Notes under the pieces: generated by a model
What the model was told of the DNA's origin: nothing
Seen by the model: only the letters and a program-made list of their open reading frames with translations
Database searches by the model: none
Shown here: piece after piece, positions 5,639 through 41,099 of the stretch
How positions within the stretch are numbered: the stretch's first letter is position 1
How the letters are laid out: every line of letters begins with the position of its first letter
Assembly (NCBI GenBank): GCA_905205665.1
Contig: CAJLEF010000002.1
Location: forward strand, 85,050-149,049
DNA: 64,000 nucleotides
Direction: 5' to 3'
DNA from: an uncultured Bacillota bacterium
Lineage (GTDB): Bacteria; Bacillota_I; Bacilli_A; RF39; UBA660
Program-made: the position numbers and the translations under genes

Positions 5639-6859
5639 TTAATTATTAATATTTAAATGATACGGATTTTCTTTACTACCATCACCTAAAATATTTGTCT
5701 TTTTAACAAGAGTGATAACCGGTCTAAAAAACAAATTGGTATCTTCTTGAATATCTTTTATTAAAGAACCATTTGACATAACCGCGATGTAGTTTGTTTT
5801 ACCATTTTCTTTTTTATTAGGTGTCATAGTCCACCAAGAACTTTGTAAGTTAGGAAGATATAAATAATAATCCTTATTTTCATTCGTAGTTGCTCCGGCA
5901 AACATGACTTCATCCGCGGTTAAAGTAGCAATTTTTTTAGATAAAGAAGTACCATTACAAGCATTAGTAGGATTTGCTTCTTGAAATAAACGACTATTAG
6001 AAAGATATTCTATTTTGCCATTTTCATCTAAGTTAACGCTGTTATCATAACAATATCTCGTGCTAGCAATATAACTATCATTATCCATTAAAAGTGTATT
6101 ATAAAACTTTTCTAATTCGGTATTTAAATTACTTGTCACAAAATCATTATTACCAAGAGCACTTGTTACATTAAAAGGTATCATTGCTTCAGTAATACTA
6201 TTTAAAACTAATTTAACTGTTTTATCTTCATTTATTTTAACAATGCGCCACATTTGATTGGCAAACATTACATAATTATTTTCAACCTTACCGCGAAAAT
6301 AATAAACATCCCCATCTTGTTCTGCTTTTCTTATTAAACCATTTTCTTCTTGACTTTCTAAAATGGTATTATTTTGTAAAATAACACTGGCAAAACTATT
6401 ATCAATTTCTTCAATATCTGTTTCAATTTCAAACGTTAAAGCATTTTTTAAAGGATTTGAAATATCCATAGTATATCGATGTGTTTCTTGTGGTTCAATT
6501 TCAATACGACTACCTAATAATGTTTTAGAAAATGAAGAAGAAAAACTTTCAAATACTTGATTGTTAGATTTCAAAGTATAACTTGCTTCATCGGCATTTA
6601 AAACATTAGTTAATTTTACATAATAATACTTAGTATCATCAGAATGATTTGTCACTGAAAATTCTATTTTTTCAGTCTCATTATTTACTTTTATTTTGTT
6701 GCCATTTATATAATTTATAGAAAGTTCTTCTGTTACTAGAGTAAGAGCCTCTCCATAAGTTTGATTTAATCTATATTTACGATATTCAGAAAAAACAAAT
6801 AAACAAGCAAGGAAGATGATAAAAATTATAACCAAAGCGATTATATACTTTTTTTTCAT
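5639..6859 (-). CDS. exported/membrane-anchored paralog-family protein P1 (divergent member)
   Basis: N-terminal TM. It shares the family motifs YYFRGKVENNYVMFANQMWRIVKIN, LTADEVMFAG, SWWTMTPN and FRPVITL...GDGSKENPYHL with P2-P5. Alternative starts lie at 6865 and 6868. Confidence 0.7.
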   Translation of the reverse strand: MKKKYIIALVIIFIIFLACLFVFSEYRKYRLNQTYGEALTLVTEELSINYINGNKIKVNNETEKIEFSVTNHSDDTKYYYVKLTNVLNADEASYTLKSNNQVFESFSSSFSKTLLGSRIEIEPQETHRYTMDISNPLKNALTFEIETDIEEIDNSFASVILQNNTILESQEENGLIRKAEQDGDVYYFRGKVENNYVMFANQMWRIVKINEDKTVKLVLNSITEAMIPFNVTSALGNNDFVTSNLNTELEKFYNTLLMDNDSYIASTRYCYDNSVNLDENGKIEYLSNSRLFQEANPTNACNGTSLSKKIATLTADEVMFAGATTNENKDYYLYLPNLQSSWWTMTPNKKENGKTNYIAVMSNGSLIKDIQEDTNLFFRPVITLVKKTNILGDGSKENPYHLNINN

Positions 6860-6896
6860 GGCCATCAACCCTTCTTATAATATAAGTATATTAATT

Positions 6897-6912
6897 TGAC
6901 AAAGATATGTCA
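6897..6912. promoter_or_regulatory. palindrome TGACA-AAGATA-TGTCA overlapping the predicted -35 of the P1 promoter (candidate operator)
   Basis: Inverted repeat seen directly in the sequence. On the minus strand, TTGTCA (6897-6902), a 17-nt spacer and TATAAG (6874-6879) form a plausible promoter. Apart from a one-nucleotide difference in spacer length (N6 here, N5 there), the TGACAAA...ATATGTCA core is the same as in the palindrome at 9803-9823. Confidence 0.35.
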
Positions 6913-6954
6913 ATTTATTTTGAAGGACTTGACAATTTTTTTAAGCCTTCCATC

Positions 6955-8307
6955 CTAAGCAACAACATAGGGATCGGTCATGGTACCACTTCCTGTAATA
7001 GTCACATCAGAGCGAATATTGATTACTGGTGTTAAAGAATAATTACTTCCAGAAGTATAGGGATCATCAAATCTTCCAACAGCATCAATGATAAATACAT
7101 AAATTCCCCAATAAGTTTTATCAAATGGATTATAACCTCCTACAGGTGTCATGGTCCAAATATTTTTGCCAGTAGTTAGAAAGCATTTATAACAACTTTT
7201 TTGATAATTATATCCACCATTAAAATCACCACCACCATAGCCAGATAACATTGCTTCATCTGCACTTATTAAACCAACAGGATAAGTTAGTGCCTTATTA
7301 CCAACGTTTGATGATGTAATCGTATAAAAATCATTAGTATTTTCACATGACAAACTTGGTGTTCCATGTGAAATTCTTAAATACCCATTATAATAAGTAG
7401 TAATCGTACCTGTTCCAACACCAGACTGCAAATTCAGGGTTGAACGATCACCACAAAAGCCTGTTTCTTTATCTAAATAATTGATATAAGAATTAAGGTT
7501 ATTTTTAAAAAAATTATCATTATTCTGTTTTATAACTGATGAAATCAGCAAACCATGTTGTTTATTTTCTTCATACATATACCCAACATACATATTATTA
7601 CTATAATTATTAAAAAAAGAACTTGACATTGCTTGCCTATCATCAGATATTTCCCCATTCTCGTGGGCACTTGTTCCATCATAGATCATTCTTATGGAGC
7701 CATTACTATTAATACGAACAATTCGCCAATAAAAACCTGCGAATTTAACATAATTATTTTCTACCGAACCTCTGTAATAATAAGTTGGCTTTCCATCATA
7801 GTCTGTTGTTTCAAAAATACCCTTTTCGTGTGATTCACATGATGAATCATCACAAGCTGACTTTGTAAAATCTGGAGTATAACTATTCACTTCAATATTT
7901 CCTAAGGTGGTTTTTACTGTTTTGGCTGTTTTATTAAAATATAAAGTACATTTAGTTCTTGTATTTGTAGTCGCACTATAATTATGATAATCTCCGATAA
8001 ATTTCCAACCAGCATTATCCCAAGTTGGAACAACGCCATTATTACAATTTGATTTTGTCTCATCTAAAGTGTAACCTGTATTTTGAAGAGGCATATTTCT
8101 TGATATAACGCCATCTATATAATAAGCAAAATAAATATCTCCTGGATCTTCTACTGTTCCATTGATAACATCAAAATCTTTCCTTTCTTCATAGAAAGCA
8201 TAACTTTGATAAAAAATTACATAACCCGTTATAATGCCAATCATAAAAACAAATACGATTATGGCTATTTTTTTAGGCTTTTTTATTTTAAATTTTTCTA
8301 ATTTCAT
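6955..8307 (-). CDS. exported paralog-family protein P2
   Basis: 450 aa. N-terminal TM/signal with SYA|FYEE. Blocks are near-identical to P3/P4/P5, for example PTYYYRGSVENNYVKFAGFYWRI(V/I)RINSNGSIRMIYDGTSAH. It starts 12 nt after the P3 stop, behind GGTGGTGA. Confidence 0.8.
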   Translation of the reverse strand: MKLEKFKIKKPKKIAIIVFVFMIGIITGYVIFYQSYAFYEERKDFDVINGTVEDPGDIYFAYYIDGVISRNMPLQNTGYTLDETKSNCNNGVVPTWDNAGWKFIGDYHNYSATTNTRTKCTLYFNKTAKTVKTTLGNIEVNSYTPDFTKSACDDSSCESHEKGIFETTDYDGKPTYYYRGSVENNYVKFAGFYWRIVRINSNGSIRMIYDGTSAHENGEISDDRQAMSSSFFNNYSNNMYVGYMYEENKQHGLLISSVIKQNNDNFFKNNLNSYINYLDKETGFCGDRSTLNLQSGVGTGTITTYYNGYLRISHGTPSLSCENTNDFYTITSSNVGNKALTYPVGLISADEAMLSGYGGGDFNGGYNYQKSCYKCFLTTGKNIWTMTPVGGYNPFDKTYWGIYVFIIDAVGRFDDPYTSGSNYSLTPVINIRSDVTITGSGTMTDPYVVA

Positions 8308-8319
8308 CTTTTCACCACC

Positions 8320-9669
8320 TTAACTAACAACATAAGGATCAGTCATAGTGCCACTTCCTGTAATAGTGACATCAGAACGAATATTGATTACTGGACGAAG
8401 ACCATACGTGCCGTAAGTATAATTATCATCGATAAGACCAGAACCACCCACAGAAAACAAAAGTGCAAGCCAGTCTGTAAAACCAAATGGATTATATCCC
8501 CCAGCTGGGGTTATAGTACAGAATCCACTTCCAGTTACTAAATAACTGCTGTTATTTGATTTCATTCTAGTATAATAGCCATCAAATACTCCTCCAGCAT
8601 GACCTGCAAGTACAACTTCATCGACTGTGATTAAACCTGTGGGGTAACTTAATTTTTTGTTACCACTTGACGCACTTGCTACGGTGTAATAATCATTGGC
8701 GTTTTCACAAGTAAGTGTTGGAGTACTTTCTGCTACTCTTAAATACCCCTTATTATAAGTAATCACGATTCCCGTTCCGACTCCACTTTGCCGATTTAAA
8801 TTAGAACGGTCGCCACAGAAACCAGCATTCGTATCTAATTTTGAAGCATAACTAGAAAGTTTATCGGTATAAAACTTATCTACATTTGTTTTAATAATTG
8901 AAGATGTTCCCGTTCCATTAGCTTCACCTGATGTGTACATATAACCTACATACATATTGTTGTTATAATTCGGATTAAATTGACTTGTGCCATATTGTCT
9001 ATCTTCTGATGCTTCACCATTACTATGAGCACTTGTTCCATCATATATCATTCTAATAGAACCGTTGCTATTGATACGAATAATTCGCCAATAAAAGCCC
9101 GCAAATTTCACATAATTATTTTCTACCGAACCTCGGTAGTAATAAGTAGGATTGCCATCTGTATCTGTTGTTTCATAAATCCCCTTTTCGTGTGATTCAC
9201 ATGTTTCATCATCACAAGCTGATTTGGTGAAATCTGGAGTATAATTATTTACTTCTATATTTCCTAAGACAGTTGAAACTGTTTTGGAAGTTTTATTAAA
9301 ATACAAAGTACATTTGGTTCTTGTGTTTGTTGTGGCACTATAACTTGTATAATCTGTTACTCCTTGCCACGTACTATGATTCCAATTTATTTTTACTCCA
9401 TTCGTACAATTAGATTTAGTTTCATCCAAAGTATAACCTGTATTTTGCTTAGGCATTTCTCTTGATATTTCTCCATCAATATAATACGCAAAATAAATAT
9501 CTCCTGGGTCTTCTACCGTTCCATTTATGACATCAAAATTTTTATTTTCCTCATAAAAAGCATAACTTCTACCAAATAAAAAATATCCCAGTAAAAGGCC
9601 AATGCCTATTAAAAATAGGTTTATACTTGTTTTCTTTATATTCTTAACTTTAAATTTTTCTAATTTCAT
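8320..9669 (-). CDS. exported paralog-family protein P3
   Basis: 449 aa counted from MKLEKFKV (ATG 9667-9669 behind GGTGAG). This start is homologous to the P2 start. The track ORF extends to 9771 only because no stop codon intervenes. Confidence 0.8.
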   Translation of the reverse strand: MKLEKFKVKNIKKTSINLFLIGIGLLLGYFLFGRSYAFYEENKNFDVINGTVEDPGDIYFAYYIDGEISREMPKQNTGYTLDETKSNCTNGVKINWNHSTWQGVTDYTSYSATTNTRTKCTLYFNKTSKTVSTVLGNIEVNNYTPDFTKSACDDETCESHEKGIYETTDTDGNPTYYYRGSVENNYVKFAGFYWRIIRINSNGSIRMIYDGTSAHSNGEASEDRQYGTSQFNPNYNNNMYVGYMYTSGEANGTGTSSIIKTNVDKFYTDKLSSYASKLDTNAGFCGDRSNLNRQSGVGTGIVITYNKGYLRVAESTPTLTCENANDYYTVASASSGNKKLSYPTGLITVDEVVLAGHAGGVFDGYYTRMKSNNSSYLVTGSGFCTITPAGGYNPFGFTDWLALLFSVGGSGLIDDNYTYGTYGLRPVINIRSDVTITGSGTMTDPYVVS

Positions 9670-9732
9670 TTTCTCACCACTATTACTATGCCCATATTTT
9701 TCTATTCTAACACGACTTATTATGTCATATTT

Positions 9733-9761
9733 ATGATAACATAGTTTATTTTTCAAGACAA
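9733..9761 (-). promoter_or_regulatory. predicted sigma-A-type promoter of P3-P2
   Basis: Minus strand: TTGTCT, a 17-nt spacer, then TGtTATCAT (extended -10), about 65 nt upstream of the P3 start. Confidence 0.4.
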
Positions 9762-9802
9762 TAGTTAGCATGACATTTCATACCGTGTTTTTTCATACAA
9801 TA

Positions 9803-9823: not shown

Positions 9824-9832
9824 GTGAGAGTT

Positions 9833-10042
9833 ATGATTAAAGAATATCGAAAAAAAAGAGGCTATACCCAAGAAAGGCTAGCCGAAGAATTATTTATTTC
9901 TACAAGACAATTACAACGAATTGAAAAAAATGAAACCAGTACGACACTGGAAACATTAAAAAGAATTAAAAAAATATTAAAAATACCATCTGAAGAAATG
10001 GTCCAAATTTTTGAAGATAAAGATGAAGTTAAAAACCCTTAA
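9833..10042 (+). CDS. small XRE-family HTH transcriptional regulator
   Basis: 69 aa from MIKEYRKKRGYTQERLAEELFISTRQLQRIEKNE (classic Cro/CI HTH). It is divergent from P3. The track starts at an upstream GTG (9824). Confidence 0.75.
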   Translation: MIKEYRKKRGYTQERLAEELFISTRQLQRIEKNETSTTLETLKRIKKILKIPSEEMVQIFEDKDEVKNP

Positions 10043-34531: not shown

Positions 34532-34555
34532 AGAGCTCTATTCTTTATTTTTTTC
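34522..34555. terminator. bidirectional hairpin between the convergent DUF1540 and glycosyltransferase genes
   Basis: AATAAAGA-7 nt loop-TCTTTATT, flanked by an A-rich run on one side and a T-run on the other. It overlaps both stop codons. Confidence 0.45.
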
Positions 34556-35701
34556 ATGTTTAATTTCTTCCCAACCTAAGCTCGGATGAATTAAACACCT
34601 TAAAAAAGCATGCAAATAAGAAAACATAAATATTGGATGATAAAATAACACTTGAAAATATAATTTTTTACTTAATTTTGTTTCTTTTTGAAATAAATAT
34701 AAATAATAAATTGTACAAAGAAAAAAAATAAAGTAAAATAAAAGAGGAAGAAAAATAATACTTTTAAAACCAGTTAAATACATTACCCAGAAAACAAGAC
34801 CAAAAAGATAACACAAATAAGGAATAATTCCTAAATACATTTGCATAATTGCTCCTTTATTAGAAGGATTTTCTTTTAATTTAGCTTTTAATAATTTGTG
34901 ATAATAAAAATAATTTTGAAAATAGCCTTTTATCCAACGACTTCTTTGTTTAATACTTTTTTGATAATCTTCTGGTTGTTCATCATAAAATTTAGCCTTT
35001 TCATTATAATGAACGGAAATATTTTCTAAAGTGTAATATAAAGAACTTTCATAATCTTCTGTCAAAGAATGAAAAGGAAATGTTTGCCATTTTTGAATAT
35101 ATTCTCCACTGATATAATAGCCTGTTCCTGATAAAATCTTAGCTCCTTTTTGGTTACGAAAACTATTTATAAAAGTAAAGGTAAGCCCAGCACAGATAGG
35201 AAAATAACTTTTCTTATTTTTTAAAGCTCGGTAACCTGTAGAAATATCATAACCTTCACAATAATCTTCAATCATATATTTTAAATAATCTTTATCTAAG
35301 ATGTTATCGGCATCAAAAATAAAATACATATCATATATTTTGTTTTGATGGCACAAATACTCAACTATTTCTTGTAAAGCATATCCTTTAGTTTTTAACT
35401 CTAGGTTTTGCCTTACAAAATAGTTCATGTGATGTTTTTTGGTAATCGCAACCGTTTTATCTTGTTCATCTTCCACGATGACATAGACATCTTTCAAGAT
35501 AGAAGATGACTGATTTTCAATAGAGATAAGAAGACTTTCAATAACTTTAGATTCATTACGAGCTGGTATTAAGATGGCTATCCTTTCAGGCGCTTTCCTT
35601 ACTTTTTTCTTTAAAGGTTCATCTTTCTTTAAAAGGATACTAACCGAAGTAGAAAGAAATAAGCCTAATAAAAAAAAGGCCAAAGAAACCCAAGCGGTCA
35701 T
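34538..35701 (-). CDS. membrane-embedded family-2 glycosyltransferase (processive type)
   Basis: 387 aa. N-terminal TM, then ILIPARNES, DADN and QRSRWIKG (Q-x-x-RW), followed by 3-4 C-terminal TM helices. Confidence 0.8.
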   Translation of the reverse strand: MTAWVSLAFFLLGLFLSTSVSILLKKDEPLKKKVRKAPERIAILIPARNESKVIESLLISIENQSSSILKDVYVIVEDEQDKTVAITKKHHMNYFVRQNLELKTKGYALQEIVEYLCHQNKIYDMYFIFDADNILDKDYLKYMIEDYCEGYDISTGYRALKNKKSYFPICAGLTFTFINSFRNQKGAKILSGTGYYISGEYIQKWQTFPFHSLTEDYESSLYYTLENISVHYNEKAKFYDEQPEDYQKSIKQRSRWIKGYFQNYFYYHKLLKAKLKENPSNKGAIMQMYLGIIPYLCYLFGLVFWVMYLTGFKSIIFLPLLFYFIFFLCTIYYLYLFQKETKLSKKLYFQVLFYHPIFMFSYLHAFLRCLIHPSLGWEEIKHEKNKE

Positions 35702-36378
35702 TTTTGCACCTCAATAATTACCATATTTGTATAGCTTTCCTTTAGTTTTTCATCTGGATAATAAGTATCAAAAAATCTACCTACAAAACTTATAGGTTGT
35801 ATCCCATTATGTCTTAAAGTTTGTCTTATAAGAGCCCCCCATGACACGGTAAAATCAGCTATTAAAATAACTAATAATGTTTTGGTAAGAATCGTCCCAA
35901 ATTTAATAGGAAAAGACTCAACAATGTTAGATATTAAAGGATAAACTACTTTAACAAGTAAAAGAGCAAGTAATCCCCAAACAAAAGCATAAGGAATGGT
36001 TGTTCGCCCATTAATGTTTAAAAATTCATTCGTATAATCCCAACTAACAGTTCCTAAAAAAGTTTCTTGTAAAAAGGAAATTAAGTACTCAAAACCTCCT
36101 CCAAGTAAAGCCCCATAAAAAATTGTTTGATAATCTGGTCTTTTTTTTCGGCCTAAAATTGCTATCATTAAAACGGCGCCCATACCGTAAATAGGACTAA
36201 TAGGTCCATATATAACACCTCTTCTTAGTTGCCAAACAAGTTCATGATGATAGTGAAAATGTATAACTAAATTTAAGATTTCTTCATAATAAGCACCAAA
36301 AACACAACCTACTAAAAAGATCCAAAACATTTTGTAAAAACACATTCCACTGGCAAATTTTTGTTCATCTTTAGCCAT
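35698..36378 (-). CDS. polytopic membrane protein, 'putative ABC-transporter type IV' (CmpB/PF06541-like)
   Basis: 226 aa with about 6 TM helices. The IYGPISPIYGMGAV motif resembles that family. It overlaps the GT2 start by 4 nt. Confidence 0.5.
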   Translation of the reverse strand: MAKDEQKFASGMCFYKMFWIFLVGCVFGAYYEEILNLVIHFHYHHELVWQLRRGVIYGPISPIYGMGAVLMIAILGRKKRPDYQTIFYGALLGGGFEYLISFLQETFLGTVSWDYTNEFLNINGRTTIPYAFVWGLLALLLVKVVYPLISNIVESFPIKFGTILTKTLLVILIADFTVSWGALIRQTLRHNGIQPISFVGRFFDTYYPDEKLKESYTNMVIIEVQK

Positions 36379-36435
36379 AATAATACCTCAAATCTGCATT
36401 TATTTTATCATGAATTTAGAGGATTGTAAATTTTT

Positions 36436-37794
36436 TCAATTTAGTTCATATGGGTCATTTTTTGTACCGCTTCCTTTGATGTTAACATCAGAGCTGGCAT
36501 TAATAACAGGGCGAAGACCATAAGCGACACTCACATTACCATCTTCAACACTACTATAGTAGGAAGGCGTAACAACAAAAGCAAGAGCTATCCAATCGAC
36601 TCCGCCAAAATAATTATATCCTCCTACTGATGTCATTGTCCAAAAATAATCACCAGACGTCAAGTAAACTCTATTATTTTTTTTCATATGACTATAAGTG
36701 CCATCAAATAAGCCACCTGCATAACCTGCTAGCAGAACTTCGTCCACTGTTATTAAACCAATCGGATAAGTTAAAGACTTATTGCCACTTGAAGCGGTAG
36801 ATACTGTATAATAATCACCTTCATTTTCACAAGCTAATGTCGGAGCACTTGCTTCTACTCTTAAATATCCTTTATTGTAAGTAGTAACTGTTCCTGTTCC
36901 AACACCGCTTTGATTGTTTAAATTAGAACGGTCGCCACAGAAACCAGCATTCGTATCTAATTTTGAAGCATAACTTGAAAGTTTATCCGTATAGAACTTA
37001 TCATTGGCTGTTTTAATTGTCGAAGAAGTGCTTGTACCATGATCTTCTCCAGATGTATACATATATCCCATATACATATTGTCATTATTGTTTATATTAA
37101 ATTGACTTGTCCCATATTGTCTGTCTGTTGATGACTCACCATTTTGATGAGCACTCGTACCATCATAAATCATTCTGATAGAACCATTACTGTTGATTCG
37201 TATAATACGCCAAAAATAACCTGCAAATTTGACATAGTTGTTTTCCACTGAACCACGGTAGTAATATGTAGGTTTAGCGTCTGTGTCTGTTGTTTCATAA
37301 ATACCTTTTTCATGGGATTCACATGATGAATCATCACAGGCTGACTTTGTAAAATCTGGAGTATATGTGTTAACTTCAATATTTCCTAAAGCCGTTTTTA
37401 CTGTTTTAGCTGTTTTATTAAAATATAAAGTACATTTTGTTCTTGTATTTGTTGTAGCACTATAATTATGATAATCACCAATGAATTTCCAACCAGCATT
37501 ATCCCAAGTTGGAACTACTCCATTATTACAGTTTGATTTTGTTTCATCTAAAGTGTAGCCTGTGTTTTGAAGAGGCATATTTCTTGATATAACGCCATCT
37601 ATATAATAAGCAAAATAGATATCTCCCGGATCTTCTACGGTTCCATTTATGACATCAAAATCTTTTTTTTCTTCATACAAAGCATAGGATTTATAAAACA
37701 AATAACTACTTATAGAAAGTAAAAGAAATCCTATGACCAATATGACATAAGATTTTCTTTTATAATTATTTTCTTTATATTTTTTTAATTCCAT
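36436..37794 (-). CDS. exported paralog-family protein P4
   Basis: 452 aa from MELKKYK (ATG 37792-37794 behind GGTGAAGATA). This start is homologous to the P2/P3 starts. The 5' half is about 90-95% identical in DNA to P5 and P2. Confidence 0.8.
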   Translation of the reverse strand: MELKKYKENNYKRKSYVILVIGFLLLSISSYLFYKSYALYEEKKDFDVINGTVEDPGDIYFAYYIDGVISRNMPLQNTGYTLDETKSNCNNGVVPTWDNAGWKFIGDYHNYSATTNTRTKCTLYFNKTAKTVKTALGNIEVNTYTPDFTKSACDDSSCESHEKGIYETTDTDAKPTYYYRGSVENNYVKFAGYFWRIIRINSNGSIRMIYDGTSAHQNGESSTDRQYGTSQFNINNNDNMYMGYMYTSGEDHGTSTSSTIKTANDKFYTDKLSSYASKLDTNAGFCGDRSNLNNQSGVGTGTVTTYNKGYLRVEASAPTLACENEGDYYTVSTASSGNKSLTYPIGLITVDEVLLAGYAGGLFDGTYSHMKKNNRVYLTSGDYFWTMTSVGGYNYFGGVDWIALAFVVTPSYYSSVEDGNVSVAYGLRPVINASSDVNIKGSGTKNDPYELN

Positions 37795-37820
37795 TATCTT
37801 CACCATAGTTTCCTATGATG

Positions 37821-37853
37821 ATTATAACAGATACCCCCCCCCCCGACTGTCAA
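37821..37853 (-). promoter_or_regulatory. P4 promoter: TTGACA - GTC-G11-TATCTGT (21-nt spacer) - TATAAT with TGn extension
   Basis: Read directly on the minus strand. The -10 is at 37821-37826 and the -35 at 37848-37853. About 27 nt separate the -10 from the ATG. Confidence 0.55.
37834..37844 (-). repeat. homopolymeric tract, C11 on plus strand = G11 on the coding strand
   Basis: Counted directly: ataCCCCCCCCCCCgac. Confidence 0.95.
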
Positions 37854-37854
37854 G

Positions 37855-38762
37855 ACGGTTTGGAGAGTTTATAATATCTTTATACCACTTTGACAGAGGG
37901 TATATAATATAAATAATTTTAGAAAGGAGTAATTTTATGGCTAAAAAATATGATAATAATTTTAAATCTATGATTGTTAATTTAATTTGTAATGAAAAAC
38001 ATTCTACTATTAAAACTGCTGAACAATTTGAGATTCCTCTCAAGACTGTTGAAAAATGGATTACTGCTTACAACAAAAATAATAGATGTTTTGATTCCGA
38101 TTATAAAACTCAAAGTCAAATTATCGATGATTTAAAAAAACAAATTTCTAGATTAGAAAAAGATAATGAAATACTAAAAAAAACGATTACTTTATTAGCA
38201 AAAAAGGAATAAAGAGGTTTGAAAGTGCTGAACTATTAGTTTCAAAATATAATTATAAGCTTAATGAAGTCTATAATGCTTTAAATATTAATAAATCTTC
38301 TTATTTGTATTGGAAATGTAAAGGGAAAAATAATCTAAATAAGTTAGCTACTTTTTGTCAGCAAATTGTTTCTGTTTATGCTGATTCAAATGGAGTTTAT
38401 GGTGCACCCAAAATAGCTGCTGTTTTAAAGACAAAAGGCATTACTTGTTCCACTTCTAATGTTTCCAAAATCATACATAGATTGGGCATTAGAAGTATTG
38501 TTTCTAAGAAATTTCCTCATAGAAAAAGTAATTTAACAGACAAAGAAAAATCCTTAATTATTAATTTAATTAAAGATTTAGAAATTAACAAAATCAATCA
38601 AGTTTGGACTACTGATATTACTTATATTCAAACTATCAACGAAGGCACTTTTTATCTGATTTCTTTCTTTGACTACTTTTCCAAAAAAGTTGTTGCATGG
38701 GGTTTATTTTCTGACCAAAAAACAGATAAAATTTTAAAGGTTTTAGATGATGCTATTGAAAA
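37855..38762 (+). mobile_element. IS3-family insertion sequence remnant (left part only; 3' end deleted)
   Basis: OrfA plus a -1 frame OrfB N-terminal portion with an A_AAA_AAG slippery site. OrfB stops after the first catalytic D (WTTDITY) region. No inverted repeats were identifiable, so the boundaries are approximate. Confidence 0.75.
37937..38212 (+). CDS. IS3-family transposase OrfA (HTH)
   Basis: 91 aa. The HTH (KTAEQFEIPLKTVEKWI) is followed by a leucine-zipper-like tail (LKKQISRLEKDNEILKK), typical of IS3/IS150 OrfA. Confidence 0.8.
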   Translation: MAKKYDNNFKSMIVNLICNEKHSTIKTAEQFEIPLKTVEKWITAYNKNNRCFDSDYKTQSQIIDDLKKQISRLEKDNEILKKTITLLAKKE

Positions 38763-38766
38763 AAGA
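38203..38766 (+). pseudogene. IS3-family transposase OrfB, truncated (lacks most of the DDE/rve domain)
   Basis: The -1 frame is open from the slippery site at 38200-38206. It contains GAPKIAAVLK and NQVWTTDITYI (first D) and ends at ...DDAIEKR, then reads into flanking DNA. Confidence 0.7.
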
Positions 38767-38786
38767 TTGCAATTTCTTACAATCTT
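38758..38786 (-). terminator. rho-independent terminator after P5
   Basis: Minus strand: AAGATTG-10 nt loop-CAATCTT-TTTTTC. The U-tract abuts or overlaps the point where IS homology ends. Confidence 0.5.
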
Positions 38787-38801
38787 GACACTTATTTGAC
38801 A

Positions 38802-40154
38802 TCAATTAACAACATATGGGTCTGTCATAGTGCCGGTTCCATTAATGGTGACATTAGATTTTAAATTAATAACTGGGCGCAGACCAATCTCAACACCAGG
38901 GCTACGGTCGACAATTTTACCAGTGAAGCTCATAGTGAACACAAACGTAGTTGTATCAAGATATCCAAACGGATTATAGAACCCGGCAGGTGTCATAGTC
39001 CAAAATACATTTTCTGAAATCAAATAACTTCCATTATTTGATTTTTGATGGCTATATTCGCCATCAAAGACACCACCGGCATGACCAGCAAGCATTGTTT
39101 CATCAACAGTGATTAAACCAATCGGGTAGTCTAATTTTTTGTTACCACTTGAAGCGCTGGTTACTGTATAATAATCACTGGCATTTTCACAGGCAAGGGT
39201 TGGTGCACTTTCTTCTACCCTTAAGTATCCTTTATTGTAGGTAATAACGGTTCCTGTTCCAACTCCACTTTGTTTATTTAAATTAGAACGGTCCCCACAG
39301 AAACCAGCATTCGTATCTAATTTTGAAGCGTAACTTGAAAGTTTAGCGGTATAGAACTTATCCACATTTGTTTTAATTGTTGAAGATGTTCCTGTACCAT
39401 GGGCCTCACCCGATGTGTACATATAGCCTACATACATGTTGTTCTTATTATTTGGATTAAATTGACTTGTGCCATATTGTCTAACCGCTGATAATTCGCC
39501 ATTCGCGTGAGCACTCGTTCCATCATAAATCATTCTAATCGAACCATTACCGTTAATACGAATAATTCGCCAATAGAATCCTGCAAACTTAACATAATTG
39601 TTTTCTACCGAACCTCTGTAATAATAAGTAGGCTTTCCATCATTGTCTGTTGTTTCATAAATACCCTTTTCGTGAGATTCACATGAAGAATCATCACAAG
39701 CAGACTTTGTAAAATCTGGAGTATAACTATTCACTTCAATATTTCCTAAAGCCGTTTTTACTGTTTTAGCTGTTTTATTAAAATATAAAGTACATTTGGT
39801 TCTTGTATTTGTGGTCGCACTATAATTATGATAATCACCAATAAATTTCCAACCAGCATTATCCCAAGTTGGAACAACGCCATTATTACAGTTTGATTTT
39901 GTTTCATCTAAAGTGTAGCCTGTGTTTTGAAGAGGCATATTTCTTGATATAACGCCATCTATATAATAAGCAAAATATATATCACCAGGATCTTCTACGG
40001 TTCCATTTATGACATCAAAGTCTTTCCTTTCTTCATATAAAGCATAGGATTTATAAAATAAATAACTGCTTATGGAAAGTAAAAGAAATCCTATGACTAA
40101 TACGACATAAGATTTTCTTTTATAATTATTGTCTTTATATTTTTTTAATTCCAT
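38802..40154 (-). CDS. exported paralog-family protein P5
   Basis: 450 aa from MELKKYK (ATG 40152-40154). The family blocks are as in P2-P4. Confidence 0.8.
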   Translation of the reverse strand: MELKKYKDNNYKRKSYVVLVIGFLLLSISSYLFYKSYALYEERKDFDVINGTVEDPGDIYFAYYIDGVISRNMPLQNTGYTLDETKSNCNNGVVPTWDNAGWKFIGDYHNYSATTNTRTKCTLYFNKTAKTVKTALGNIEVNSYTPDFTKSACDDSSCESHEKGIYETTDNDGKPTYYYRGSVENNYVKFAGFYWRIIRINGNGSIRMIYDGTSAHANGELSAVRQYGTSQFNPNNKNNMYVGYMYTSGEAHGTGTSSTIKTNVDKFYTAKLSSYASKLDTNAGFCGDRSNLNKQSGVGTGTVITYNKGYLRVEESAPTLACENASDYYTVTSASSGNKKLDYPIGLITVDETMLAGHAGGVFDGEYSHQKSNNGSYLISENVFWTMTPAGFYNPFGYLDTTTFVFTMSFTGKIVDRSPGVEIGLRPVINLKSNVTINGTGTMTDPYVVN

Positions 40155-40180
40155 TATCTTCACCATAGTCTCCTATGATG

Positions 40181-40212
40181 ATTATAACAGATACCCCCCC
40201 CCCGACTGTCAA
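40181..40212 (-). promoter_or_regulatory. P5 promoter: TTGACA - GTC-G10-TATCTGT (20-nt spacer) - TATAAT with TGn extension; A9 tract upstream
   Basis: Read directly. The -10 is at 40181-40186 and the -35 at 40207-40212. It is a duplicate of the P4 promoter apart from tract length. An A9 run (T9 at 40223-40231 on the plus strand) lies in the UP-element position. Confidence 0.55.
40194..40203 (-). repeat. homopolymeric tract, C10 on plus strand = G10 on the coding strand
   Basis: Counted directly: ataCCCCCCCCCCgac. Confidence 0.95.
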
Positions 40213-40286
40213 GGGACTTTTATTTTTTTTTGACTGTTAGTAAGTATTAAAATTTTCCCTAGTCACAATTTATTTTAATTTTATAA

Positions 40287-41099
40287 TCATTCATTATTTT
40301 TAAATACACTGGCTATTTCATAACCTAAGAAAGTAAAAATGCTTAATGTCAACAAATTAGAAGAATTTAAAAAAGGAAAGATTTTTAAATAGAAAAAGTA
40401 AATGGAACTTAAAAGAAAAATAAAGATAAGAAGCCAAGTCGTTTCTTGATGTTTCTTAAAACACCAAGCCATAATTTTAACCATTATTAAAATACCTAAT
40501 AACGTTCCCACAATAAAAAGGAAAAGTTCTTGTAAATGCATAAAAGGATAAGCCATCAAATTTAAAATATATGTGTAACTACCAAGACTTACATAAGTAG
40601 CCGTTGCACTGATACCAGGTAAAACCATACATAACGCATCAATAATTCCCAAGAAAAACACATAAAAATAAGATATAAAGGATGAGTCAAAATGAAAAGT
40701 ATTAAAACGAATATGATTATAAAAATAGATTAATAAAAGTAAAATTATTAAAAGAAAAAAATAATCTTTCTTTTTTATCTTGGTATTTTGGTACACCGTT
40801 GGCACCGTTCCTAAAATAAGACCACCAAAAAAAGTCATCGTATAAAGGTAATAATTCTCCGTCAAAAATAAGACAAGTTTGCTTCCTAAAAAAATAGAAA
40901 GTAAGATACCACATCCTAAAGGAAATAAATACTTAAAGCTCTCTTTTTTGTTTTTAAAAAAAGAATTAATTTTTAAAATAGCTTCATCATAAACACCCAG
41001 TAAAATAGCCAAAATAGCGCCTGATACTCCTGGTATTACTTTGCCAAGACCAATTATAATACCTTTTAGAAAAAGAAAAAAACTTTGCATAGGCTTCAC
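40287..41099 (-). CDS. DUF368-family membrane protein (PopT-like undecaprenyl-phosphate translocase family)
   Basis: 270 aa, polytopic, with the duplicated motif PGVSGA / PGISAT characteristic of DUF368. Confidence 0.7.
   Translation of the reverse strand: MKPMQSFFLFLKGIIIGLGKVIPGVSGAILAILLGVYDEAILKINSFFKNKKESFKYLFPLGCGILLSIFLGSKLVLFLTENYYLYTMTFFGGLILGTVPTVYQNTKIKKKDYFFLLIILLLLIYFYNHIRFNTFHFDSSFISYFYVFFLGIIDALCMVLPGISATATYVSLGSYTYILNLMAYPFMHLQELFLFIVGTLLGILIMVKIMAWCFKKHQETTWLLIFIFLLSSIYFFYLKIFPFLNSSNLLTLSIFTFLGYEIASVFKNNE

Follow-up and report, generated by a model that had tools for sequence, protein, structure and literature searches.

What does a run of ten G residues do between a perfect -35 hexamer and a perfect extended -10, in front of a gene (P5) whose paralog (P4) lies behind the same promoter core with a tract of eleven? 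We addressed this question in a stretch of 64 kb of DNA (the window) with a GC content of 29.5%. The reading that we favour, with a probability of roughly 0.7, is that the P5 promoter belongs to a set of copies of one modular, slippage-driven contingency cassette serving a family of surface proteins.

On the minus strand, positions 40212 to 40181 read TTGACA GTC GGGGGGGGGG TATCTGT TATAAT, with a tract of G10, exactly as an earlier note on this DNA had claimed. The features of the P5 locus are the following:

40287 to 41090, minus strand: DUF368/VCA0040-like gene, which flanks the P5 promoter and serves as anchor for orthologous loci
40223 to 40231, minus strand: A9 run, within the A-rich block AAAAAAAAATAAAAG
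40207 to 40212, minus strand: -35 hexamer TTGACA, within the conserved 9-mer TTGACAGTC
40194 to 40203, minus strand: G10 tract in the P5 promoter spacer
40181 to 40189, minus strand: extended -10 TGtTATAAT, kept in all cassettes
40152 to 40180, minus strand: short leader CATCATAGGAGACTATGGTGAAGATA with ATG; the leader is common to all cassettes
38802 to 40166, minus strand: P5 open reading frame, 454 aa from the first ATG

The whole spacer between the two hexamers (40206 to 40187) is 20 nt long, not 17, with the TG at 40189 to 40188 and the -10 hexamer TATAAT at 40186 to 40181; a standard promoter scan allowing spacers of 16 to 18 nt called neither the P5 nor the P4 promoter. As expected of loci of the porA, tp0126 and vlp type, a homopolymer of about 8 nt or more separates a recognisable -35 from a recognisable -10, and by their hexamers both window tracts are placed in a textbook sigma-A promoter. 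Two other ways of reading this segment were rejected: TATCTG, taken as the -10, lacks the invariant final T and would leave a spacer of 13 nt, and a TTG-initiated leader reading frame through the tract meets a stop codon at every tract length and has no Shine-Dalgarno sequence. The first ATG of P5 lies at 40166, 14 nt past the -10, and a second one (40154 to 40152), preceded by GGTGA, begins the sequence MELKKYK; this second ATG is probably the real start codon, since MELKKYK fits the family-wide N-terminus M-x-L-x-K-[FY]-K.

UP elements of the rrnB P1 type are A/T-rich blocks at -40 to -60 (Ross 1993, Estrem 1998). In the P5 promoter the block AAAAAAAAATAAAAG, which contains the A9 (40231 to 40223), ends 4 nt upstream of the -35 and falls at about -40 to -60 from the expected transcription start site, in agreement with the earlier suggestion that the A9 sits where an UP element would be expected. 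We take this block to resemble the A-rich proximal subsite of such an element, with the difference that, behind an over-long spacer, it would shift out of register together with the -35. In some cassettes, ACAGTCAA is found about 20 bp upstream of TTGACAGT, and the two form a near-inverted repeat flanking the A-tract (window 40232 to 40239 and 40204 to 40212; also in L005, L019 and L021), which could be a regulator site or a mere remnant.

The P4 side of the comparison comprises these features:

37821 to 37853, minus strand: P4 promoter TTGACA-GTC-G11-TATCTGT-TATAAT, with a 21-nt spacer
36436 to 37806, minus strand: P4 open reading frame, 456 aa
37861 to 38800, plus strand: IS3-family remnant, with its left end, TGGAGAGTTTATAATATC..., at 7 bp from the -35 of P4
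37937 to 38212, plus strand: orfA of the IS3 remnant
38305 to 38799, plus strand: truncated orfB of the IS3 remnant

With its -35 at 37853 to 37848, G11 at 37844 to 37834 and -10 at 37826 to 37821, all on the minus strand, the P4 promoter differs from that of P5 in the core by a single G and is otherwise identical, which is what had been claimed; the claim that identity stops one base past the -35 was likewise borne out by pairwise alignment of both upstream regions. The IS3 remnant proposed upstream of P4 is indeed there, 7 bp upstream of the -35, and shows the marks of its family: an orfA with HTH, an orfB with rve core and a terminus starting with TG. HTH_Tnp_1 gives a borderline match (24.0 against 24.1 bits), the truncated orfB contains HTH_21 and rve, and the element retains its left end (TGGAGAG...), while the right end is missing. 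The same IS3-family left end (TGGRGAGTTTATAATATCTTTAT...; window 37861 to 37900) was also observed in several genomes (L004, L026, L060 and L003), where it precedes the -35 of poly-G cassettes by 6 to 8 bp and, in L060, adjoins a tract of the intragenic type described below. This neighbourhood could reflect a target preference of the element or its co-transfer with the cassette.

The P5 promoter had been described as a simple duplicate of that of P4; it would be more accurate to say that both belong to a cassette that was counted about 40 times across related genomes. A scan for TTGACAGTC-N4-24-TATCTGTTATAAT, run on one genome per species and also on metagenomes, located the element at species level in three related Hadza-gut MAGs, with at least 15 copies in one MAG, and the metagenome scan added more. 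The cassette is about 60 bp long and recurs about 40 times in related gut MAGs (about 41 after deduplication), often in tandem arrays. Hits in L001, L011, L014, L016, L018, L023, L024 and L027 were discarded as chance matches to the flanking hexamers, without poly-G. The conserved unit starts about 7 nt before the -35 and reaches to the end of the leader CATCATAGGRAACTRTGGTGA, and this leader is joined to at least two types of N-terminus, MELKKYK and MSLKKFK. Upstream of the unit, three contexts were found: (i) the A-rich block AAAATAAAAG, which about 17 of 39 cassettes have, P5 among them; (ii) the stop codon of the preceding paralog, in tandem arrays; and (iii) the left end of an IS3-family element, as at P4. 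The A-rich block is missing from cassettes that follow IS ends or stop codons. What had been taken for native AT-rich DNA at P5 is this conserved block, and its recurrence among cassettes lends mild support to the UP-element idea. At the P5 site itself, the DUF368-side promoter is resident in every strain seen.

The tract is G10 in 29 of these cassettes, G11 in 8, G9 in 2 and G12 in 1, and in 1 further copy it is interrupted (GGCGGGGGG). Lengths from G9 to G12 correspond to spacers of 19 to 22 nt. Among the approximately 41 cassettes no G6 to G8 allele, the predicted ON form, and no state with a functional spacer of 16 to 18 nt was observed, which leaves the ON state hypothetical. The string TTGACAGTC-Gn-TATCTGTTATAAT provides a ready signature for scoring switch states in metagenomes.

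In the mechanism that we propose, a cassette would consist, in this order, of an optional A-rich UP-like block, TTGACAGTC, the G tract, TATCTGTTATAAT and a leader with Shine-Dalgarno sequence and start codon, and would drive the expression of paralogous, membrane-anchored surface proteins in a lineage of uncultured gut Bacilli. Slipped-strand mispairing would change the number of Gs, presumably in a reversible manner, and with it the spacing and the rotational register of the extended -10 relative to the -35 and the A-tract, and the transcription of each copy would be altered independently of the others. Tracts of G7 to G8 would give the canonical spacer of 17 to 18 bp and are predicted to be ON. 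The G10 of P5 and the G11 of P4 probably represent low or off states, because their spacers measure 20 and 21 bp; at these lengths at most basal transcription, from the extended -10, would be expected. By analogy with the systems discussed below, combinatorial expression of P4 and P5 is plausible. A 17-nt spacer is present in the poly-G-less P3 promoter and in another promoter of the window; a count of TTGACW-N-TAHAAT spacings, aimed at the spacer that this organism prefers, yielded too few sites.

The closest precedents are N. meningitidis porA and T. pallidum tp0126, both controlled by a poly-G tract between -35 and -10, in which slippage alters the distance between the hexamers and thereby the transcription level, with an optimum of 17 nt (PMC7864442). 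The cassette shares with them a G homopolymer in the spacer of a sigma-70-type promoter of a surface-protein gene; however, it is multicopy, with tens per genome and a perfect extended -10, all the states seen are 2 to 5 nt longer than the optimum, and it is known from sequence alone, in a low-GC, uncultured gut Bacilli commensal. A second precedent comes from T. pallidum tprE, tprG and tprJ, which are transcribed only with 8 or fewer Gs in the tract (PMC7864442), a rule that matches our prediction of ON at G7 to G8. Like the genes analysed here, tprE, tprG, tprJ and tprL are paralogs coding for surface antigens, each with a separate poly-G tract (about 7 to 12) at its promoter. The tpr tract, however, lies beside or within the region of the -10 and the transcription start site and its mechanism is not spacer-based, and the Tpr proteins are outer-membrane beta-barrels, unrelated to the single-pass DUF6273-like proteins of this family.

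The vlp genes of Mycoplasma hyorhinis are said to carry poly-A in each promoter spacer and, reportedly, combine a conserved promoter and 5' region with a homopolymer in each copy that gives independent, combinatorial ON/OFF states (Yogev et al. 1991, Citti & Wise 1995). Here too a multigene family has a spacer homopolymer in each copy, and the host lineage is Mollicutes-like; the differences are that the tract is poly-G and not poly-A, that the products have no lipobox cysteine and that the family is devoid of the internal tandem repeats behind Vlp size variation. A reference for the vlp system, Rosengarten & Wise 1991, is listed in PMC11868660. The intragenic poly-G genes of Campylobacter jejuni and Helicobacter are comparable in that tracts of G8 to G12 stand out in an AT-rich genome, and their translational mode is the one that sister species use for the same gene family (PMC8355987, PMC3025981), whereas in the window the tract lies in the promoter and not in the coding region. 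P5 and P4 appear to exemplify a known mechanism, the homopolymer contingency promoter, in a lineage and a gene family for which it had no earlier description; our literature searches found no description of this gene family or promoter. Slippage contingency loci are known mostly from pathogens (Neisseria, Haemophilus, Campylobacter, Treponema, Mycoplasma), and what stands out here is the scale, the modularity and the uncultured commensal host: the same logic appears, with tens of cassettes per genome, in a genome-reduced lineage of the human gut. If the switching is real, it would produce stochastic surface variation and point to strong pressure from IgA and/or phages.

In sister species, genes of this family carry the poly-G in the 5' part of the coding sequence, at one of two positions. 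The first, ATGAAGCAAAAATACGTT-Gn, is in frame at G9 or G12, and the second, ATGTTC-Gn, at G8 or G11; the reading frame is lost in about 8 intragenic copies, mostly at G10, and kept in 2. Judged from these reading frames, the intragenic tracts are a case of translational phase variation, and they are an independent sign that poly-G switches this family, with most copies off. Tracts of G9 to G11 within the first codons were observed as type C in L052, L053, L059, L062, L067 and L069, and as type B in L035, L047, L058, L064 and L060. Other relatives have TTGAAA-N7-G11/12-TATAAT or TTGACW-N8/9-G9-T-TATAAT, with spacers of 18 to 19 nt.

The P5 locus also bears the marks of recombination. In the strain represented by L104 and L126, a single chimeric gene lies between DUF368 and the CmpB-like gene, where the window has two genes and the IS. 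Counted from the second ATG, its sequence matches the window P5 locus at 100% between -300 and +274, G10 and A9 included, and P4 at 100% from +177 onward (compared with window 37520 to 39977). It follows that a single crossover, located between +177 and +274 in the conserved 5' region, separates the two arrangements; it deleted or inserted 2,360 bp that comprise the body of P5, the IS remnant, the second promoter and the 5' end of a paralog. That the P4 promoter came in together with the IS is not proved by L104, since a deletion between tandem 5' regions would account for this arrangement just as well. In other samples, different gene bodies are found behind the same DUF368-side promoter (P5 at 99 to 100%; alleles at 94% and 92%). 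Three distinct contexts were seen upstream of the P4-type gene, and P0001, the closest relative of P5 elsewhere (94%), is located at recO-ezrA in other strains. In L127, both P5 and the junction between P5 and the IS match the window at 100%. Since bodies are reassorted behind shared promoters, the conserved promoter and 5' region also act as a recombination handle.

These observations allow a broader proposal, which we hold to be rather doubtful: that of a mobile, modular switch cassette that occupies three positions (the promoter spacer and two intragenic ones), reassorts by recombination in the 5' region, often together with IS3, and in which G10 may be functional in a non-canonical way. 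If it is true, a major gut lineage would run a surface-variation system of tens of loci by undescribed rules. The narrow range from G9 to G12, with its sharp mode at G10, could indicate that G10 is itself a selected functional state, and the perfect extended -10 may render the promoter largely independent of the -35.

A related alternative, which we judge unlikely, is that the tract does switch or modulate transcription, although not through the spacer between -35 and -10, G10 and G11 being active and the tract, next to an extended -10, acting on promoter melting, on DNA shape or on the placement of a regulator at TTGACAGTC. It would account for G10 being the mode in every design, whatever its mechanism, for the constancy of G10 at P5 in 7 of 7 samples and for the lack of any G6 to G8 allele among those seen; TTGACAGTC is kept as a 9-mer, with the near-inverted ACAGTCAA about 20 bp upstream in some copies, the G tract of distant relatives abuts TATAAT or TATAAA with -35-like hexamers at 11 to 14 or 18 to 19 nt, and tprL and opc offer precedents (PMC7864442). 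Against it, TTGACA is a perfect -35 whose distance from the -10 would be exactly 17 bp at G7, the analysis brought up no candidate regulator, and the sister copies that can be read by frame are mostly OFF at G10. The last point means that a mode at G10 does not imply an ON state, and we retain spacing between the hexamers as the preferred basis of the switch.

To compare tract length between samples, the same locus was gathered from different samples by exact-protein look-ups. At three loci with identical protein and flanks, the tracts were G10 in three samples and G9 in two (P0107), G10 in two and G11 in two (P0019), and G10 in two and the interrupted GGCGGGGGG in two (P0110), bearing in mind that one-G differences in Illumina assemblies of G9 to G11 tracts can be errors. 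Look-ups with P5 (454 aa) and with DUF368 from its GTG start gave no exact match; the DUF368 protein from an internal ATG (267 aa) succeeded. The earlier note had made length heterogeneity at the window tracts one of its tests. In assembly consensus such heterogeneity is seen at P4, where the locus with the same IS-side junction and a protein 99.3% identical has G11 in the window and G10 in L137, and it is not seen at P5, where the locus, anchored on the identical DUF368 protein, has G10 in the window and in six spanning contigs (7 of 7). Within one genome, that of the window, the two tracts, 2,360 bp apart, differ (G10 at P5, G11 at P4). The A9 is invariant at the P5 locus (11 of 11 sequences, the window and 10 contigs), and four P5-locus contigs end inside the G tract. 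More generally, many metagenome contigs were seen to end in or beside a poly-G cassette (L130 to L133, L122, L123 and L110 to L112), a warning that assemblies of this lineage fragment at these elements. The exchange between GGCGGGGGG and G10 at one locus according to sample, with identical flanks, was observed in L113, L115 and L022, and the interrupted tract may be a 'locked' allele.

The homopolymer content of the window bears on the same question. No G/C run reaches 7 except the G10 of P5 and the G11 of P4, and no A/T run reaches 9 except the A9 of the P5 promoter. Runs of G9 are expected 0.02 times and were found at 2 loci, while 45 ± 10 A9 runs are expected from dinucleotide shuffles and 1 was found; by the run-length spectrum, about 27 A/T runs of 9 or more are expected, against 1 seen. 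Up to A/T8 and G/C6 this spectrum agrees with the Markov expectation; beyond these lengths it breaks off, the sole exceptions in 64 kb being the G10, G11 and A9 of the P5 and P4 promoters. The absence of all other long runs implies selection against them and retention of these three by selection, and it suggests that long runs are strongly mutable and are purged in this genome.

It could still be argued that the tract is fixed and does not switch, the one-G differences being sequencing or assembly errors at a difficult homopolymer. G10 at P5 in all spanning assemblies would agree with this, some of the variant contigs are short and of low coverage, and homopolymers that reach 9 are prone both to errors and to contig breaks. 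Each variant length was, however, found twice, in independent samples and studies, an interrupted allele exists, and the purging of all other long runs from the genome argues for high mutability; moreover, a fixed tract would turn the out-of-frame sister copies into a mass pseudogenisation of an otherwise intact family. Taking both sides into consideration, we regard a fixed tract as distinctly unlikely. That the element is no promoter at all, with hexamers that resemble the consensus by accident and P5 transcription that reads through from pnp and DUF368, is most improbable, for although no intrinsic terminator was detected between DUF368 and P5, the same element stands in many unrelated contexts (IS ends, stop codons of paralogs, rbfA or ftsX) with a perfect TTGACA and TGnTATAAT kept throughout.

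The proteins behind the two promoters, P5 and P4, are 83% identical, with the first approximately 130 residues nearly identical and the divergence growing towards the C-terminus. The family is large, with more than 6,800 clusters at 90% identity among 8,000 candidates scored, essentially all of them unnamed; the gut MAGs of origin bear the labels uncultured Bacilli, Tenericutes, 'Mycoplasma sp. CAG:776' or Candidatus Ventrenecus. Neither P4 nor P5 has a Pfam match even at E<=10 or a sequence match in the PDB, and neither reaches the gathering threshold of DUF6273 (PF19789); relatives about 40% identical show weak C-terminal matches to DUF6273, of 28.2 bits and lower, against a cutoff of 23.5. 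An AlphaFold model of P5 (mean pLDDT 72.7, pTM 0.70) has an N-terminal membrane helix at residues 15 to 38 followed by a globular, beta-rich ectodomain. In a Foldseek search with this model, the top match and only significant PDB neighbour was 9qa6, the IgA peptidase of Thomasclavelia ramosa (E 5.7e-4, TM 0.29, 315 columns), residues 31 to 322 of which are annotated as DUF6273. The N-terminal domain of this peptidase so annotated has no known function (PMC12402451). Considering the model, its 9qa6 neighbour and the weak DUF6273 matches in relatives, the P5 product is most likely a single-pass, surface-exposed, DUF6273-like protein. The N-terminus of P5, MVKIMELKKYKDNNYKRKSYVVLVIGFLLLSISSYLFYKSY, contains no cysteine and has no lipobox, and P5 is not a lipoprotein. 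A link between the ectodomain and immunoglobulin binding is pure speculation.

Downstream of P4 (window 36379 to 36435 and 34538 to 36378), a CmpB-like gene and a GT2 glycosyltransferase gene follow, 57 nt away, and no terminator-like site was found after P4; a switch at P4 might also affect this glycosylation operon through read-through. A GT2 gene is also located downstream of another member of the family (L113/L114). Three further paralogs, P1 to P3, form an operon-like row at 5639 to 9771, without poly-G, adjoined by a small, divergently oriented XRE-type HTH gene (9824 to 10042). The promoter of the first gene of this row resembles TTGTCT-17-TATCAT with a TG extension, and P1 to P3 may be a constitutively or conventionally regulated set.
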